Assembly: GCA_038740615.1 (NCBI GenBank)
Contig: JAVYLQ010000008.1
Coordinates: forward strand, 1 to 20,215
Reading direction: 5' to 3'
DNA length: 20,215 bases
DNA from: Candidatus Anstonellales archaeon
GTDB lineage: Archaea > Micrarchaeota > Micrarchaeia > Anstonellales > J096
Every line of letters starts with the position of its first letter. Position 1 is the stretch's first letter. Positions 13,363 to 20,215 of the stretch are shown here, piece after piece. The notes under the pieces were generated by a model that saw only the letters and a list, made by a program, of their open reading frames with translations, was not told the DNA's origin and made no database searches. A program made the position numbers and the translations under genes.

Positions 13363-13434
13363 CGCCCTGGGCAGGATTCGAACCTGCGACCTTCCGGTTA
13401 ACAGCCGGACGCTCTACCTCTGAGCTACCAGGGC
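13363..13434 (-). tRNA. tRNA-Asn (GTT)
   Basis: GCCCTGG acceptor stem, TAGCTCAG D arm, CCGG-CTGTTAA-CCGG anticodon arm, GGTTCGAATCC T arm; no intron, CCA not encoded. Confidence 0.97.
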
Positions 13435-13521
13435 TACTTATTTAAATTGCAGCTAATGTTTAAAAATCTATTCAGCTATGGAAGAGTAATGTTTTTAAAC
13501 ACTTTTGTATATTATAAATAC

Positions 13522-13746
13522 ATGGACAGCAAAACTGCTGAACAGAAAATTGCCGAAATGAATAACGAAGAAAATATAATAAAAGTACTAGATCCAAATT
13601 TTAATAATAATATAACTGTTTTTGAAAATCCAATAGATGCCCTATCTGGTTTAAATAAATTTTTAAGTGAATCTAATAATCAAGAAAACCAAGAAGAATT
13701 AAAGAGACTAGAAGAATTGTTAAAGAATTTATTGTTAAACAACTAG
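13522..13746 (+). CDS. Small acidic Asn/Glu-rich hypothetical protein (74 aa)
   Basis: Open frame between the two tRNAs; ATG 13522 lies ~25 nt after TTTTTAAA; C-terminal amphipathic EELKRLEELLKNLL. Confidence 0.5.
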   Translation: MDSKTAEQKIAEMNNEENIIKVLDPNFNNNITVFENPIDALSGLNKFLSESNNQENQEELKRLEELLKNLLLNN

Positions 13747-13782: not shown

Positions 13783-13857
13783 AGCGGGGTAGGGTAGCCT
13801 GGAGTGCCCGCCGGGCTCATAACCCGGAGATCGGTGGTTCAAATCCACCCCCCGCTA
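13783..13857 (+). tRNA. Initiator tRNA-Met (CAT)
   Basis: AGCGGGG/CCCCGCT acceptor stem with A1-U72, anticodon arm CCGGG-CTCATAA-CCCGG with three consecutive G-C pairs, GGTTCAAATCC T arm. Confidence 0.97.
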
Positions 13858-13912: not shown

Positions 13913-16495
13913 ATGGAGCTATTAAGAACCGATGGAATTAGTGCTAATGGGGTTTTTTTGGTAGGTAACAGAGAGATAAGAATTGTAGATAATAAACAGG
14001 AGATGGGGATGCTATTTATACCGGCAGAATCAATTCCGAAATCTTTGGAATTGAGTAATAATGTATCATACAAGGGTAATGCTAAGATAGTATCTCTTGA
14101 AGTAATAGATTCTACTGGAAAGAGGAGGAAGTTAGATCTGCTGGTTGCAGGTAATATCGTGTTCTTCAGATTTGATCAGGAGAGTAGATGGACAGTATAT
14201 AGCCCAAATGTACTTCCATTAGATCAGTATCGAATCGAACTGAATGGCAGATCTGTTCAATTATCAAATGTTATCTCTATTGAAGATAGAGTATCACCAA
14301 GAGTCAGAATTCCAGGATATAGACAGAGAATTTATGATACATTGGTAATTAAACCTGAATTTAAAAACTCTATCCCTGTTCAATCTCTAGAACTCAAAGA
14401 TTCAGTAGTATTAAATGAGCTTAGACCCACAAAGATGACTTCTCAGAAAACTGAAGATTCAAAGAGATCTACAAATAATTTACCTCAAGTAATCAGTAGC
14501 ACACAAGGGACTTTTGTTGTGAATGGAACTAGTATAAGATTGGTTAAAGATTTTCATATCACTAGCATGTTCTCCCCTGCAAATACTATCCCCCCATCGA
14601 TGGTGTTAAATGATAACGTATACTTTTCAGGAAAGGCCAAAATAGTATCTCTGGACGTTTATGATTTAAATGGTAGATTAGTAGAATTGCAATTCCTGGT
14701 AGCTAATAATATTGTGATGTTCCGATTCAATGGGGATAATAGATGGTTTCTTTACACTCCAGAAGCATTAGCTTTAGATAATTATAGAGTGAGATTGAAT
14801 GGTAGAGATGTGAAACTATCTGAATTGATAGATATCCGAGATCAATTACAGACTGTTGGTAGTAGAAAAATATATGATGCGATTTTCATAAAGCCGGAGT
14901 TGGCAAATCATCTAAATTCTTCAGGTAAGATTAAAGAGTATACTTTAGAGTCCGTATCTCTGAACTCTCTCATATCTACTAATGTTAAGAACGAGCAAGC
15001 TAAGAGTACAGCTCAGATAGAAAAACCAGGTAATACGGATAGAACTCCATCCCAAAAGGAAACTGTGCAGAAACCCAAGAGATCACCTATGCTTGAACAG
15101 TTGTATAATTCAATTAATAGAGTAGATCGGGATAATGTTGTTGCGGCTGTGGAATCCCTATTGAATGGAAAATATAGATGGATCTGGTTCGGAATTGCAA
15201 AGAGAGATTTACCTACTGTTCAGAAATGGTTCAGGGAAAACTTTGGAGATAAATATGTGTTATCAATCTTGGAGGATAGGGGTAATAGAGTAAGAGTGAG
15301 GGTAGATCCTAAACAGGTATCTCAACCATCTAAGATTCCTCCACAAACCACCACTCCTAAACCTTCTAGTAAAGAATCCCCTAAAGCATTAGATAATATT
15401 CAATCTAATTTAGACTCTCAGAAACAGACTATACCTTCAACTAACCAGACTGAACAACCCCAGGGAAGAGAAAGAGGGGATATGTTAGGAATTGAATTCA
15501 CTAGACAGTTCTCTCAGCATTATTCTGAATTATTGAAGAGTAGAGATATATCTAAGCAACATCTACAGAGAGCTAAAGATATGTTAAGTAGATATTCTGA
15601 AAGGGATATTTATGCGATGTTAGGATTGAATCCTGAACAGATGATCAAGAATAGAGAGATGTTGGCTAGAACAGATCGCAATCTGAAAAGGCCAGAGCTT
15701 ACTGTAGAACAGCATCTAGCTATTGTCTTGATGGCTCTAGATAGAACTGGTGTAAACAGGGGAGAGAATCTGGCTAGAACTGTTATCGAAAATCCTAATT
15801 CTCTGGAGAAAACTGGAGTAAATAGACAGGAGAATCCTATAGTAGATCAGAGAGAAGAACAACTTCAGAAAGCAGAGCAGACTGTTGAATTATCTCAGGG
15901 AACTAGACGAATGTTAGCAGTAGGTAATACAAATGTAGAAGTGTATCTATCTGGAAATCTACTCGAATTAACATTGAATAATCAAAAGTACTATTTGGGT
16001 TTACCTAACAGCGTGGAGGAATTGGAGAGATTGAGGGAAATGGGATTAGAAGAAGCTGTTCCAGTGATAGTGATATCAAAAGAAGGAGCAAATCTCCACG
16101 TTCTAGATCCTAATAGATTAGATGAGCTACAGAAGCTACAGGATGGTGGGGATGCATATTTACTGATCGTTAATGTCTCTGACAGAGGAGTAACTGTATA
16201 TACCACCAAGTTAGATAGAATAGCTCCAGTAATCAGATCCTTGGATGATGTGGTATCTGAACTGAATACTCCGGATTGGATAAGAGATGTTGTTTATAAT
16301 ATAGATAGAAATCCAGAGCAAATAGATCCAAAAGTAGTACCTGGAAAATTAGAATCCTATTACTCAGATGAGGAAATCAGATTGTTGAATCAGATATATG
16401 AGATGTATTTCAAAAGTAGAATGAGTTGGGAAGAATTCGTGGGTTTTGCAATATATTATTTTGAAAAACCTGTTGTTGATGTTGAGGTGAGATAA
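13913..16495 (+). CDS. Large hypothetical protein with duplicated N-terminal beta-rich domain and P/Q/S/T linkers
   Basis: 860-aa ORF; TTTTTAAA about 25 nt upstream; internal repeat visible by eye; no family recognised. Confidence 0.85.
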   Translation: MELLRTDGISANGVFLVGNREIRIVDNKQEMGMLFIPAESIPKSLELSNNVSYKGNAKIVSLEVIDSTGKRRKLDLLVAGNIVFFRFDQESRWTVYSPNVLPLDQYRIELNGRSVQLSNVISIEDRVSPRVRIPGYRQRIYDTLVIKPEFKNSIPVQSLELKDSVVLNELRPTKMTSQKTEDSKRSTNNLPQVISSTQGTFVVNGTSIRLVKDFHITSMFSPANTIPPSMVLNDNVYFSGKAKIVSLDVYDLNGRLVELQFLVANNIVMFRFNGDNRWFLYTPEALALDNYRVRLNGRDVKLSELIDIRDQLQTVGSRKIYDAIFIKPELANHLNSSGKIKEYTLESVSLNSLISTNVKNEQAKSTAQIEKPGNTDRTPSQKETVQKPKRSPMLEQLYNSINRVDRDNVVAAVESLLNGKYRWIWFGIAKRDLPTVQKWFRENFGDKYVLSILEDRGNRVRVRVDPKQVSQPSKIPPQTTTPKPSSKESPKALDNIQSNLDSQKQTIPSTNQTEQPQGRERGDMLGIEFTRQFSQHYSELLKSRDISKQHLQRAKDMLSRYSERDIYAMLGLNPEQMIKNREMLARTDRNLKRPELTVEQHLAIVLMALDRTGVNRGENLARTVIENPNSLEKTGVNRQENPIVDQREEQLQKAEQTVELSQGTRRMLAVGNTNVEVYLSGNLLELTLNNQKYYLGLPNSVEELERLREMGLEEAVPVIVISKEGANLHVLDPNRLDELQKLQDGGDAYLLIVNVSDRGVTVYTTKLDRIAPVIRSLDDVVSELNTPDWIRDVVYNIDRNPEQIDPKVVPGKLESYYSDEEIRLLNQIYEMYFKSRMSWEEFVGFAIYYFEKPVVDVEVR
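13949..14970 (+). repeat. Two diverged tandem copies of a ~155-aa protein domain
   Basis: GNAKIVSLEVIDSTG/GKAKIVSLDVYDLNG, LVAGNIVFFRF/LVANNIVMFRF, LDQYRIELNGRSVQLS/LDNYRVRLNGRDVKLS, RIYDTLVIKPEF/KIYDAIFIKPEL. Confidence 0.9.
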
Positions 16496-19400
16496 ATGGT
16501 GCAGATTAATGCAGTTGCAGTTGAACCTAAGGAGGTATATCTAAGACCAACTGATGAATTTGTAAATGAAAAAGGTGTAAAAGTCTATGATAATGGGAAA
16601 TGGGTAGAGCTAAAAGATAGCAGACAACTCAAACCTGGAGCAAAAATAAGTATAGATGGACACGTATACGTAGTTACAGATCAGAAAACTGATTATACAG
16701 TGAGTATGTATAATAAATATACTCTAGCTGATGGGAGAACGGTTTATGAATTACCTGGTAAGAGATATCTACTTGTATCTGGAAATTCTCAATCTTCAAT
16801 ATCAGAGGCAAGATTCAAGACTCTTATAGAATCCGCTAGAAGTGTGGAAACAATTGTATACGTTAGCAATTCTGTATATCAACACAACAAACAGAAAGAT
16901 AAACCTTCCCAACCATCAGAACAGCAAAAAACAGATCCTAGACAGGAGCAGAGAGCTATTCCACAACCTACCAGCCAGGAACAGAAACCTCAGTCTACTA
17001 GCCAGATGAGCAGACAGGAAACTGCAAGATTCTTACACACAGGAGCATATCTACTGAGTGGTATTGATATTTATGTAAATGATCCTGCTCTATACTCAAG
17101 GACTTTCGGAGAATGGTTAGATGAGGTAGATAAGGCTACTGGTGGTAAGTACTCCAAATCTCTAATGGAGGCTTTAGGTATAGATAGTAAGCAGCTAGAG
17201 GAGCTTAGATCGAAATCTCTAGCAGAAATAATGGCAGCTAGAAGAGATCTGGGAAGTTTATTAACTTCCAAAAGTGTTAAGGAGAGTGATCTTGATACTC
17301 TAAGAGGAAGGTACGGAGATGCTCTATTGTTAGTACTACTGAGAGCTACTACTGGAGATAGGAATCTAACTCTAGATGATGTTAGAGAAGCCATAAGATT
17401 TGTTGGTAGTGATACTTACAGATCTGCTCATAGGGAGATTAGAGATATATCAGCAAGAGCTGCAGATCAGTTAGAACAGAGGAATATACTAGAAAGATAT
17501 TACTTTGTTAAATACGCTTGGCCAGCAATCAAGAGAATGGATGGAATGAGCTATGTGGAGAATAATCTCTATATGGAATTCAGCCTGAACAGTACTAAAG
17601 GGGCTCAGTTCTTAGAGAGAGTGTTAGGTCAGAATTTCTCAAATAACTATCTGAGTTACAGATATGGTTTACCATTCATGATCAGAACAAATTCATCTTT
17701 TGATAATCTGATAGCTATGCTATCAGCAGTTGAGCAGGTAAACCTGGGGATTATGAACAATCCTACCGCTCTGGGTTTAAATAGAATGGAGCAATTTAGA
17801 TATTACACTTCAGAATTGCCTAGAATAGTAGCATCATTATATGCTAACTATGCTGCAGCTCTTGAACCTAGACTCAGATCAGGATTATTAGGTGATTTTG
17901 AAAGCAGATTAAGGCGATATACTTCAGCTACATCTGGAATGAGATTTGATCAGGTTGAGGAAGTTGCAAAGATCATAGAGGATTTTGTTAGAGCTGGAAA
18001 GGATCTAAGAATCCCTTCGGATAATACCTTTGGAGCTCGAGGTAATGTTAGGGCCTCACCAGTCTTAAGAGAACCTCAATTAAATCTGCTAACACAAGGG
18101 TTGATAATGAATATGGGACAGCTAATCTCAAGATACAATCCAAATGCAGGATACTTCTTCTCCCTACCTCAAGAGTGGTTAGATCTCAGAGGTAATCTAT
18201 ATTATGAAGCTACAGAGAGTAGTGCTAGAGGTTCTGGTAGAGTAGAACTCAGAGGAACCAGATCCTATGTAGCAACCAGTATTGATAATGATAGATTGCA
18301 ATTTTTGGCTAGAAATATAGAGATGCTAAGGGAACTAAGAGGAACAGTCTCCCCTACCAGAGTAGAAGTGGAATTAGAGGCTCAATTAGATAGAGAGTTT
18401 AGGGGAGCAAATGTAGGAGTAGTATTTAGGAGAGAGAATGGTAAAATGGAGGGGATTCTATATGCAAAGATAGATGGTAATTGGTATAGAATAGGAAGAG
18501 TGGATAATTCTTGGTTACTTGGTATGGATGTAGTTATCCCAGGATTAGCTAATGCAATTGGAGAGGTGAGAGTTGGTGATAGTGGTAGTGTTGTGGGTAG
18601 TATAGGAATCGCTATGCCACAACTATCAGGATGGGTTGTGAAAACTGAAGAGGATCTGTTGGCTATAGGTGCATATCTGTTGAATGGTAATCAGTTGGCT
18701 GCAGGAACTTTTGCTAATCAGAATGTTACTGCTCCAAATTTAGTATACGCAGGATTCTACAACGGTAATGTATTATTAGGTGGACAATACCTAACCAAAG
18801 ATTACTCTATTAGTGGTATGGGAATTTTAGGTAATGGTCTAGGTATAGAGGTGACTTTCGGAACTAGGACGATTGTATTACAAGGAGGTTATGCTAACTT
18901 CGATGGATTATCTAGTGTTTATGGAGCTGCAAAGGCCATAGTAGGAGATATGAGAGTATTTGCCGCATATATTGCATCTGGGGAGAGAATGTTCATGGGT
19001 GCTGCTGTGGAGAGAGATGGATTTGCTCTACAGGCTTATAGAATGTCCAAGGTTGATCCAAAGATCTTTGGAATGTACAGCAATTTCTTCAGGGATGCCA
19101 GTTCATTCACTGGTGCAATTGCCCTTTGGGGAAGAAACTATGCAGAGCTAATAGTTGCACAGACCCCTGAGGATTTGAGGATTTTACTAGGAGGGGGTTA
19201 TAGTGTAGAAGGAGGTGTGGAGCTTAGTGGTGCGGTGGGTTTTGGGAATGGTGAGAGAATGATTGCAGCCAGAGCCACCCTACCTATAGGAATATGGTTG
19301 GCATCAGCAGGTGTTCTATATCAGAGTAATAAATTACTATTTTCCGCATCAGCTCAAAATCAGCAATGGTTCTTCGGAGCAGCATATAACACATCAACAG

Positions 19401-19693
19401 GAGTATTAGGAGTAAAGGTTAGATACGGGGACTCAGATAGGACTATAGGGGTATACACATCTTTTTCTAATAGGAGTATAGGAATAATTGGTGAATATGG
19501 GTTCTTCCTGAATGAGGCCATATTCTTATCACTGAGTGCTGCATATGCAACTGGAGAATCAGGAGGATGGTATGTTGGTGCTAGAGCAAGCTATAATCAG
19601 GCCAACTCTAATTTAAATGTGGAGATTCAATACGGGGAGCAGGGCGAGAGAAGGAGGATCAGAATAGGGGCAAGTATGGTATATGCATTCTAA
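16496..19693 (+). CDS. Large hypothetical protein with putative C-terminal membrane beta-barrel
   Basis: 1065-aa ORF with GAGGTGA SD upstream; residues ~620-1065 are consecutive Gly/aromatic-rich alternating strands ending in YAF. Confidence 0.85.
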   Translation: MVQINAVAVEPKEVYLRPTDEFVNEKGVKVYDNGKWVELKDSRQLKPGAKISIDGHVYVVTDQKTDYTVSMYNKYTLADGRTVYELPGKRYLLVSGNSQSSISEARFKTLIESARSVETIVYVSNSVYQHNKQKDKPSQPSEQQKTDPRQEQRAIPQPTSQEQKPQSTSQMSRQETARFLHTGAYLLSGIDIYVNDPALYSRTFGEWLDEVDKATGGKYSKSLMEALGIDSKQLEELRSKSLAEIMAARRDLGSLLTSKSVKESDLDTLRGRYGDALLLVLLRATTGDRNLTLDDVREAIRFVGSDTYRSAHREIRDISARAADQLEQRNILERYYFVKYAWPAIKRMDGMSYVENNLYMEFSLNSTKGAQFLERVLGQNFSNNYLSYRYGLPFMIRTNSSFDNLIAMLSAVEQVNLGIMNNPTALGLNRMEQFRYYTSELPRIVASLYANYAAALEPRLRSGLLGDFESRLRRYTSATSGMRFDQVEEVAKIIEDFVRAGKDLRIPSDNTFGARGNVRASPVLREPQLNLLTQGLIMNMGQLISRYNPNAGYFFSLPQEWLDLRGNLYYEATESSARGSGRVELRGTRSYVATSIDNDRLQFLARNIEMLRELRGTVSPTRVEVELEAQLDREFRGANVGVVFRRENGKMEGILYAKIDGNWYRIGRVDNSWLLGMDVVIPGLANAIGEVRVGDSGSVVGSIGIAMPQLSGWVVKTEEDLLAIGAYLLNGNQLAAGTFANQNVTAPNLVYAGFYNGNVLLGGQYLTKDYSISGMGILGNGLGIEVTFGTRTIVLQGGYANFDGLSSVYGAAKAIVGDMRVFAAYIASGERMFMGAAVERDGFALQAYRMSKVDPKIFGMYSNFFRDASSFTGAIALWGRNYAELIVAQTPEDLRILLGGGYSVEGGVELSGAVGFGNGERMIAARATLPIGIWLASAGVLYQSNKLLFSASAQNQQWFFGAAYNTSTGVLGVKVRYGDSDRTIGVYTSFSNRSIGIIGEYGFFLNEAIFLSLSAAYATGESGGWYVGARASYNQANSNLNVEIQYGEQGERRRIRIGASMVYAF

Positions 19694-20215
19694 ACAGGTA
19701 GAACAGCAATTATTTGGGGATCTTCTTAAACTTGATGATGATCTACTGAAACGTATAGAGGAATTTAATAGAGATAGGGAAGATTCTAAAAAGATAAAGG
19801 TGATTGAACGTTCGGGTGTACGCTATGCAGTAATTGATAATAATTTTATAGAATTTTTCAGAGCACAGGACTTAAGAGAGAGATATGAAATCAGAGTTGA
19901 GCAGGAGCAGAATGGTTCTAGAGTATTTGTAGCCGTTCAAAAGAAAGAGAGGAAGATTGGGGCGGGACTAAGTCATGATAGTCAAGGTTTTGGAGCTGAA
20001 TTGAGTGTTCAAACACCTGAGTTGGGTAAGATAGCCGTTAGTGTTGGCTCTTCACAAACATCATTGCATGCAAATGCATTTAGATTAGAGGGATCTCGAT
20101 TAGGAAGTGTGTACCCTAAGATCTCTGCAGTATGTTTGGGAATTCTCTGCTGGAATGATGGTAGATTTGGACTTTCCCTGCCAACATTTAGTGGATTTCT
20201 AGATTTCTTTATAGC
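19683..20215 (+). CDS. Hypothetical protein (partial, >=177 aa, runs off the right edge)
   Basis: Hand-translated from ATG 19683, overlapping the previous gene by 11 nt: MHSKQVEQQLFGDLLKLDDD...KIGAGLSHDSQGFGAELSVQTPELGKIAVSVGS...; no stop before the window end. Confidence 0.8.
   Translation, partial: MHSKQVEQQLFGDLLKLDDDLLKRIEEFNRDREDSKKIKVIERSGVRYAVIDNNFIEFFRAQDLRERYEIRVEQEQNGSRVFVAVQKKERKIGAGLSHDSQGFGAELSVQTPELGKIAVSVGSSQTSLHANAFRLEGSRLGSVYPKISAVCLGILCWNDGRFGLSLPTFSGFLDFFI

Follow-up and report, generated by a model that had tools for sequence, protein, structure and literature searches.

A candidate porin-like membrane barrel encoded by a genus-restricted operon of a Micrarchaeota archaeon

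The DNA stretch considered here (the window) is the entire 20,215-nt contig JAVYLQ010000008.1 (C8) of Candidatus Anstonellales archaeon, assembly GCA_038740615.1, which comprises 541,905 bases in 31 contigs with a completeness of 83 %. The window carries archaeal housekeeping genes encoding aEF-1alpha, S10, the RFC small subunit, RpoE/Rpb7, L44e, aIF2-alpha, a RIO kinase and UbiA, and the host is an archaeon. At the end of the window begins an operon of four genes, A, B, C and D, whose stop and start codons abut or overlap. Gene B, the subject of this report, encodes a protein whose C-terminal half (residues ~561–1065) is best read as a porin-like membrane barrel of about 20 or more predicted strands, a reading that is given roughly an even chance. 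The protein as a whole is best interpreted, from structural models, as a probable barrel that is an orphan at the sequence level and is fused to two domains lacking a clear match among solved structures. Its parts are as follows (all on the + strand).

16496..19693, +: gene B, an open reading frame (ORF) call of 1065 amino acids (aa), single copy in the genome
16529..16864, +: residues 12–123, N-terminal all-beta domain, confidently modelled, without a clear structural match
16886..17035, +: residues 131–180, Gln/Pro/Ser-rich linker (Q 24 %, P 12 %, S 12 %), predicted to be disordered (predicted local distance difference test, pLDDT, 29–32)
17036..18175, +: residues 181–560, all-helical domain with a confidently modelled core (200–440)
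18176..18739, +: residues 561–748, the first 8 predicted strands and the most conserved segment (671–748), a candidate plug or gate
18740..19690, +: residues 749–1065, 23 consecutive antiparallel strands by DSSP of the AlphaFold2 (AF2) model, putative porin-like barrel core
19649..19690, +: residues 1052–1065, last amphipathic strand RRRIRIGASMVYAF with a terminal Phe (pLDDT ~77–86)

An earlier note on this DNA, made from the sequence alone, described a tail of successive short beta segments resembling those of outer-membrane (OM) barrels. All of the quoted segment peptides, as well as the ending RIRIGASMVYAF, were located in the translation of gene B, and the observation is confirmed. The region (18359–19693) corresponds to residues 622–1065 with the stop codon, and residues 621–1065 contain 14.4 % Gly and 10.8 % Ala. 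The ratio of non-synonymous to synonymous substitution rates (dN/dS), calculated against the 95 %-identical orthologue at locus L002, is 0.13 for the whole gene and 0.19 for residues 561–1065, compared with 0.21 for gene A and 0.03–0.12 for four housekeeping neighbours. Gene B is therefore a real gene under purifying selection. The barrel part has no paralogue in its own genome, and no family was assigned to A, B, C or D by NCBIfam or PADLOC. PHROG returned only marginal matches of unknown function for the four proteins (E 0.0031 over residues 21–62), and the best hit of a sequence-profile search of the PDB with B had an E-value of 1.2. A protein-language-model look-up assigned B to a Porin_4 cluster with a score of 0.90, which serves only as a lead.

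The fold of the C-terminal half was predicted with AF2 for residues 541–1065, using a nine-sequence alignment, while residues 1–560 were modelled separately. DSSP assigned 31 strands to the C-terminal model, 23 of them linked by hairpins in residues 749–1065 and 8 in residues 561–706. The strands of the 23-strand region have a mean length of 9.7 residues and are connected by turns of 2–4 residues, save for two 19-residue links. The pLDDT reaches 80–86 in the last ~100 residues and 77–82 in residues 561–580; the conserved 671–746 stretch and two links are poorly defined. A Foldseek search of the PDB yielded 181 matches at E ≤ 0.001, and all of the top ones listed are membrane beta-barrels, nearly all from bacterial OMs, including FimD/PapC ushers, ZnuD, LptD, OccK, AlgE and FecA, together with VDAC and Tom40. 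The top 50 matches of 48,161 chains were all OM barrels, with no sandwich, solenoid, propeller or RHS/Tc shell among them. In superpositions, model residues 13–525 spread over whole 18-strand barrels at 3.6–4.1 Å, and the sheet therefore probably closes. The structural check proposed in the earlier note thus produced, at moderate confidence, a large up-and-down beta meander matching OM-type barrels only.

The placement of the predicted barrel in a membrane is based on the distribution of hydrophobic and charged residues. Across the 23-strand region, all 10 two-residue hairpins place the hydrophobic face on the same side. The more hydrophobic face is 75 % hydrophobic, with a mean Kyte–Doolittle (KD) value of 1.48, and charges occupy 1 of its 62 central positions versus 10 of 68 on the other face. 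The charge-poor face recurs in all nine family members (1–4 charges among 60–62 positions). The charged fraction of residues 749–1065 (0.148) is close to the median of the 56 multi-transmembrane ORFs of the genome (0.147) and lies below the values of all 253 ORFs without hydrophobic segments (5–95 % range 0.227–0.334). Because its strand face is hydrophobic and nearly devoid of charges, the barrel is placed in a lipid membrane, although the embedding itself is inferred. Among 362 ORFs screened crudely by composition, B alone in the top 15 had a non-helical, charge-poor tail rich in Gly and aromatic residues.

The C-terminus also resembles that of bacterial outer-membrane proteins (OMPs), in which a terminal aromatic residue is accompanied by hydrophobic residues at positions −3, −5, −7 and −9. 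The full signature (F/W and hydrophobic residues at all four positions) occurs in 3 of the 454 ORFs of at least 150 aa in the genome, one of which is B; the other two have uniformly hydrophobic, helix-like tails. A terminal F or W is found in seven of the nine members of the B family and the full signature in six, in agreement with the OMP-like last strand with an aromatic end that had been claimed from the single sequence. The further proposal of an Omp85/Sam50-type beta-signal lacks support. With the motif defined as in the earlier note (Po-x-G-x-x-Hy-x-Hy, polar and hydrophobic positions being Po and Hy), R-I-G-A-S-M-V-Y in B does fit, but its position is not conserved: the relatives with 45–47 % identity have no Gly in the aligned column, and a loose form of the motif, anywhere in the last 20 residues, is present in five of the nine members. 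Since no Omp85-type match was obtained in the genome (see below), a C-terminus read as an insertase signal has no partner, and the simplest reading is that this 'signal' represents the last strand of the predicted barrel.

The two domains that precede the putative barrel are not readily assigned. In the AF2 model of residues 1–560, whose domains were treated within one model, neither tetratricopeptide repeats nor any other known fold was found, and an ESM Atlas search with the helical domain gave no usable match. The length of the linker at residues 131–180 differs between homologues. The most conserved part of the protein lies further downstream, in residues 671–748 (18506–18739), which show 56–75 % identity to the relatives that are 45–47 % identical overall, versus 40–48 % elsewhere; residues 673–747 include many invariant positions, Gly, Pro and aromatic residues among them. 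This most conserved stretch is at the same time the one modelled worst by AlphaFold (low-confidence helices with pLDDT 33–58, model residues 131–210), and its folding may depend on a partner, a lipid or the barrel lumen.

Gene B belongs to a small family. A HMMER profile search of 1.84 billion representative sequences recovered six proteins with E ≤ 0.001, a word-indexed search gave five and then three proteins, and genome contigs yielded three loci and metagenome contigs two; despite all these searches, the family alignment comprises nine sequences. Gene B is present in 6 of 401 genomes of the phylum, namely its own and all five others of the genus, which are 0.5–0.6 Mb in size. The identity of B to its relatives is 95, 46, 45, 21 and 21 %; gene B changes much faster than EF-1alpha, which in the rest of the genus (five genomes) is 100, 92, 86, 78 and 78 % identical. 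Gene B is thus a genus-restricted gene that evolves fast yet under constraint. The EF-1alpha match in one member of the genus (G313:C3:10012-11280, − strand) contains one in-frame TAA, which may represent a sequencing error, a broken gene or recoding. Two species have longer B proteins, P0011 (1540 aa, L010 619-5241) and P0012 (1246 aa, L011 1498-5238, − strand), with N-terminal extensions of 400–580 residues containing K/E/Q/P/T-rich linkers. At L010, the region upstream of B holds only a 188-aa ORF with an open 5′ end. The extension of the long forms may be a fused gene A, but the match of P0011 to A is not significant (E 0.04).

The surroundings of B are conserved beyond the window. The syntenic public loci L002–L004 belong to Candidatus Micrarchaeota, and the order housekeeping–A–B–C–D–housekeeping is identical in two independent assemblies, on contigs of 39.5 kb (L002) and 35 kb (L003). 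Across these operons, the proteins measure 860–946 aa (A), 1064–1096 aa (B), 774–804 aa (C) and 209–215 aa (D), and the downstream neighbours encode a PduO-type adenosyltransferase, GatE and PCNA. L004 and L005 show partial versions of the A–B–C–D order. At L006, where B is 28 % identical, a trio of genes lies amid other archaeal genes (S6e, Cbf5/TruB, MCM), and the gene upstream of B has only a weak C-terminal similarity to A (E 0.006). A homologue of C follows B at L002, L003, L004, L005, L006 (E 3e-26) and L010 (E 7e-07), so that the B–C linkage survives at identities as low as 21–28 % and in another chromosomal setting; gene A lies upstream of B at L002, L003 and L004. Gene B was detected in sequencing runs of seven studies, all of them hot-springs metagenomes except for one entry with a coded organism name, and none of the 19 listed runs that hold gene B, from seven hot-spring studies, is an RNA run.

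The operon partners represented in the window are the following.

13913..16495, +: gene A, an 860-aa orphan (ORF and translation), whose stop codon abuts the start of B
19683..20213, +: start of gene C (~774 aa in full), sharing 11 bases with the end of B; the full orthologue is P0013 from L002

Gene A encodes tandem beta domains and linkers of low complexity, and its C-terminal part is helical. The beta domain of ~145 residues is a tandem duplicate (residues 10–154 and 199–337, E 6.7e-33 between the copies), and residues 234–260 gave a non-significant match to an NCBIfam type IX secretion system (T9SS) sorting domain (E 0.043). The protein encoded by gene C has a Gly-rich beta segment at residues 90–180 and is otherwise helical. 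Gene C is broken by the assembly, its first 177 codons lying at the end of the window and ~567 more, followed by gene D, on contig C27:5075-6775 (− strand); C8 and C27 are thus adjacent contigs. A 396-aa orphan on contig C4:20513-21760 (L014 1078-2268) shares the C-terminal helical motif of gene C (E 8.9e-06), and the motif of this orphan also resembles, by eye, the C-terminus of gene A. The orphan belongs to a row of modular orphans in which small beta domains combine with Q/S/T-rich linkers and signal peptides are absent, and this row and the shared motif may represent a lineage-specific family of docking modules. The charged fractions of B residues 1–560 (0.245–0.30), A (0.267), C (0.292) and D (0.292) are soluble-like, but they overlap those of the organism's secreted proteins and therefore do not tell on which side of a membrane these parts reside. 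Just upstream of gene A, tRNA-Asn (13363–13434, − strand) and tRNA-Met (13783–13857, + strand) bracket a small acidic ORF (13447–13746; 99 aa, no family), which has a 102-aa counterpart at L002; at the same place L003 has no ORF of at least 90 aa. About 6 kb downstream of the operon, L002 carries Cas6 and a Csa2/DevR-type (Cas7) gene (19117–22711), which suggests a type I CRISPR–Cas system in a 0.6 Mb genome.

A number of results weigh against a membrane barrel, and several of them would be accounted for if the C-terminal half were instead a soluble beta structure (a sandwich, a solenoid or a closed shell) that has been mis-modelled, with A–D forming a lineage-specific cytoplasmic complex. This is the strongest of the competing explanations, possible but clearly less probable than the barrel. 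The model of residues 541–1065 is of modest quality (mean pLDDT 62.1, predicted template modelling score 0.44, 135 of 525 residues below 50), and its barrel-like shape may stem from amphipathic hairpins combined with a nine-sequence alignment; amphipathic strands are also found in soluble sheets. The Foldseek TM-scores are low (0.13–0.33, root-mean-square deviation (rmsd) 10–25 Å), as are the best VIA superpositions over at least 250 residues in quality (rmsd 7–8.7 Å). The turns in the sheet of B are short at both edges, whereas bacterial OMPs typically carry long outer loops. Its second strand face is fairly hydrophobic for the wall of a water-filled lumen (40 %, mean KD −0.19), and the hydrophobic/polar alternation is modest by the period-2 measure: the hydrophobic moment of residues 622–1065 has z=1.9 over 1000 shuffles (31 of 1000 reach it), compared with z=2.0 (30 of 1000) for residues 749–1065 and z=0.2 for the helical residues 181–560. 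Pfam contains no family matching B at E ≤ 0.01 or any of five relatives at E ≤ 0.1, a scan of the nine family members at E ≤ 5 returned only PelB_C (E 0.15, one of nine members), and PF13609 (Porin_4) and PF13505 (OMP_b-brl) have no match anywhere in the genome. According to hydropathy, neither a signal peptide nor a membrane helix is present in B, its eight relatives, A, C or D. The N-terminus of B reads MVQINAVAVEPKEVYL, the maximum 19-residue KD average in the protein is 1.52 (at residue 923), and not one of the nine family members starts with a hydrophobic stretch; 27 other ORFs of the genome do have clear signal or lipobox N-termini. The search for Omp85/BamA/TamA homologues suggested by the earlier note came out negative, with no match at E ≤ 1 to PF01103 (Omp85), PF07244 (POTRA) or PF04357 (TamB), profiles that detected 8, 12 and 6 of 14 known genomes, respectively, used as controls; as the genome is 83 % complete, their absence is not proven. 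Gene B is missing from the other genera of its taxonomic family (11 genomes) and from the remaining 384 genomes of the phylum, and a gene found in one genus alone is not a general component of the Micrarchaeota envelope or outer membrane. Finally, one report describes a single membrane and an S-layer in the cultivated Ca. Micrarchaeum harzensis (PMC8975820).

A soluble fold is nevertheless difficult to reconcile with the exclusive presence of OM barrels among the 50 best structural matches, or with a charged fraction below that of every soluble-type ORF of the genome, soluble proteins being 23–33 % charged. Both strand faces are poor in charges (1/62 and 10/68), which is unusual for a solvent-exposed sheet, and the 23 next-neighbour hairpins present one hydrophobic side for which no second layer is obvious as a cover. 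As regards the earlier claims, a large barrel of more than 20 strands is plausible in view of the 23 and 8 strands assigned by DSSP, and no propeller, solenoid or sandwich stood among the top 50 structural matches; closure, strand number and the outward direction of the hydrophobic face are deduced from a model of moderate confidence and not directly seen. Other explanations concern the origin of the gene. That it is bacterial DNA misjoined to an archaeal contig might be suspected from the G+C content, which climbs from ~0.34 to 0.40–0.42 across the last 2 kb of the window, and from a fold that is otherwise bacterial, but Gly- and Ala-rich coding accounts for the G+C rise, and no bacterial homologue of B exists among the 1.84 billion representative proteins. 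Moreover, the same gene order with archaeal flanks in L002 and L003, along with the gene B homologues in five more genomes of the genus, excludes a chimera, which the recovery of the gene in runs of seven separate studies also renders extremely improbable. A remnant of a virus or mobile element, with B as a virion or transfer structural protein, would fit the tRNA-Asn and tRNA-Met genes just upstream of gene A and four fast-evolving orphan genes, yet it is very unlikely: IMG/VR gave 95 pattern matches and no confirmed relative, tblastn against 50,697 phage records found nothing, the sole PHROG match is of unknown function, and BFVD yielded only seven weak matches at E ≤ 0.001, several of them porin- or SusC-like and none with a confident structural-protein fold. 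In addition, the flanks contain no integrase or other hallmark gene, the operon occupies the same place amid housekeeping genes in genomes whose EF-1alpha is 92 % identical, and the gene is present in all six genomes of the genus searched. A special case of the membrane barrel is that B is a self-inserting pore or conduit for the host membrane at the contact site. Restriction to one genus and very fast divergence are features typically seen in genes of host interaction, the tight turns at both edges of the sheet might be expected to cut the cost of spontaneous insertion, and the 0.54 Mb genome is of the symbiont type, DPANN symbionts being dependent on cell contact according to two papers (PMC8784108, PMC8975820). 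Such a protein would have to exit the symbiont, however, and the operon offers no export signal or dedicated secretion gene; nothing ties B to a host, and no relative in viral or phage collections hints at an injection device, so that this variant is considered rather improbable, if less so than a viral origin.

If the porin-like barrel is taken as the preferred interpretation, B would be a three-part protein consisting of the beta domain (12–123), the helical domain (181–560) and a large single-chain antiparallel barrel of the OM type. The barrel may provide a wide conduit across the membrane, with the conserved segment 671–748 and a 19-residue helical link positioned in or at the lumen as a putative plug or gate. 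It would presumably act together with proteins A, C and D, whose genes are translationally coupled and whose binding to B is suggested by gene linkage. The restriction of the operon set to one genus, together with its fast evolution, suits a role in the cell envelope or in host contact in an obligate symbiont. Among the membranes that might accommodate the barrel, the cell's own outer membrane is ranked first, followed by the cytoplasmic membrane entered from inside and then by the host membrane at a contact site. The first rank is due to the outer membrane reported for ARM-1, a cultivated hot-spring Micrarchaeon described in PMC8784108 as having inner and outer membranes; inner and outer membranes are likewise reported for ARMAN cells in PMC4243693 and PMC8871954. 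The barrel might reach the outer membrane by a non-Sec route or by self-insertion, the latter being easier given its uniformly tight turns.

Transmembrane beta-barrels count as a hallmark of bacterial OMs and of organelles of bacterial descent, and a literature search, covering titles and the openings of abstracts, returned no paper on a beta-barrel membrane protein family of Micrarchaeota or Archaea. Envelopes with two membranes, on the other hand, are on record for several archaea, Micrarchaeota among them. The most far-reaching version of the proposal, a channel barrel native to the genus and independent of bacterial OMPs, inserted without signal peptide or Omp85 and working in a four-protein apparatus of a double-membraned envelope or host contact, is put forward tentatively and is less probable than a soluble fold. 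If true, Archaea would have their first native family of beta-barrel membrane proteins, and the porin architecture would have been invented convergently. Should the barrel simply be real and lie in a membrane, the content of an archaeal outer membrane, and delivery to it without Sec signals or BAM, would become directly testable, and DPANN symbionts would have a concrete candidate for their envelope or host-contact machinery. If the model is wrong, A–D constitute one more fast-evolving orphan operon in a reduced symbiont genome.

Among known systems, the FimD/PapC ushers (PDB 3ohn, 2vqi, 3rfz) are 24-strand OM barrels with an internal plug, an element that in B is a matter of inference. They share no sequence similarity with B (7–12 % aligned identity; Foldseek TM-scores 0.19–0.33, rmsd 18–25 Å), which differs from them in its archaeal host and in the lack of a signal peptide and of nearby pilus or chaperone genes. 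OccK/OprD and AlgE (PDB 4frt, 3sys, 3rbh) have 18 strands and long outer loops, in contrast to the 31 strands assigned by DSSP to the B model and the tight turns at both of its edges; the sequences are unrelated, and B lacks a signal peptide and its genome an Omp85 match. The polysaccharide exporters PgaA, PelB and BcsC (PDB 4y25, 9h80, 9b8h) combine a helical domain with a barrel. The operon of B contains no polysaccharide synthase, and Pfam assigns no family to A, C or D. VDAC and Tom40 (PDB 6g6u, 7nie, 9eih) are 19-strand barrels that are synthesised in the cytosol, carry no cleaved signal and hold an N-terminal helix in the lumen. They differ from B in strand number (19 versus 23 in residues 749–1065 alone and 31 in all), the match is limited (Foldseek E 3e-5 to 6e-5, TM-score normalised to the target only 0.29–0.31), the position of the motif is not conserved in the B family, and neither a Sam50/Omp85 match nor sequence similarity was detected. 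What the model of B has in common with VDAC and Tom40 is the absence of an N-terminal signal, the short turns on both sides of the sheet and a motif in the last strand.

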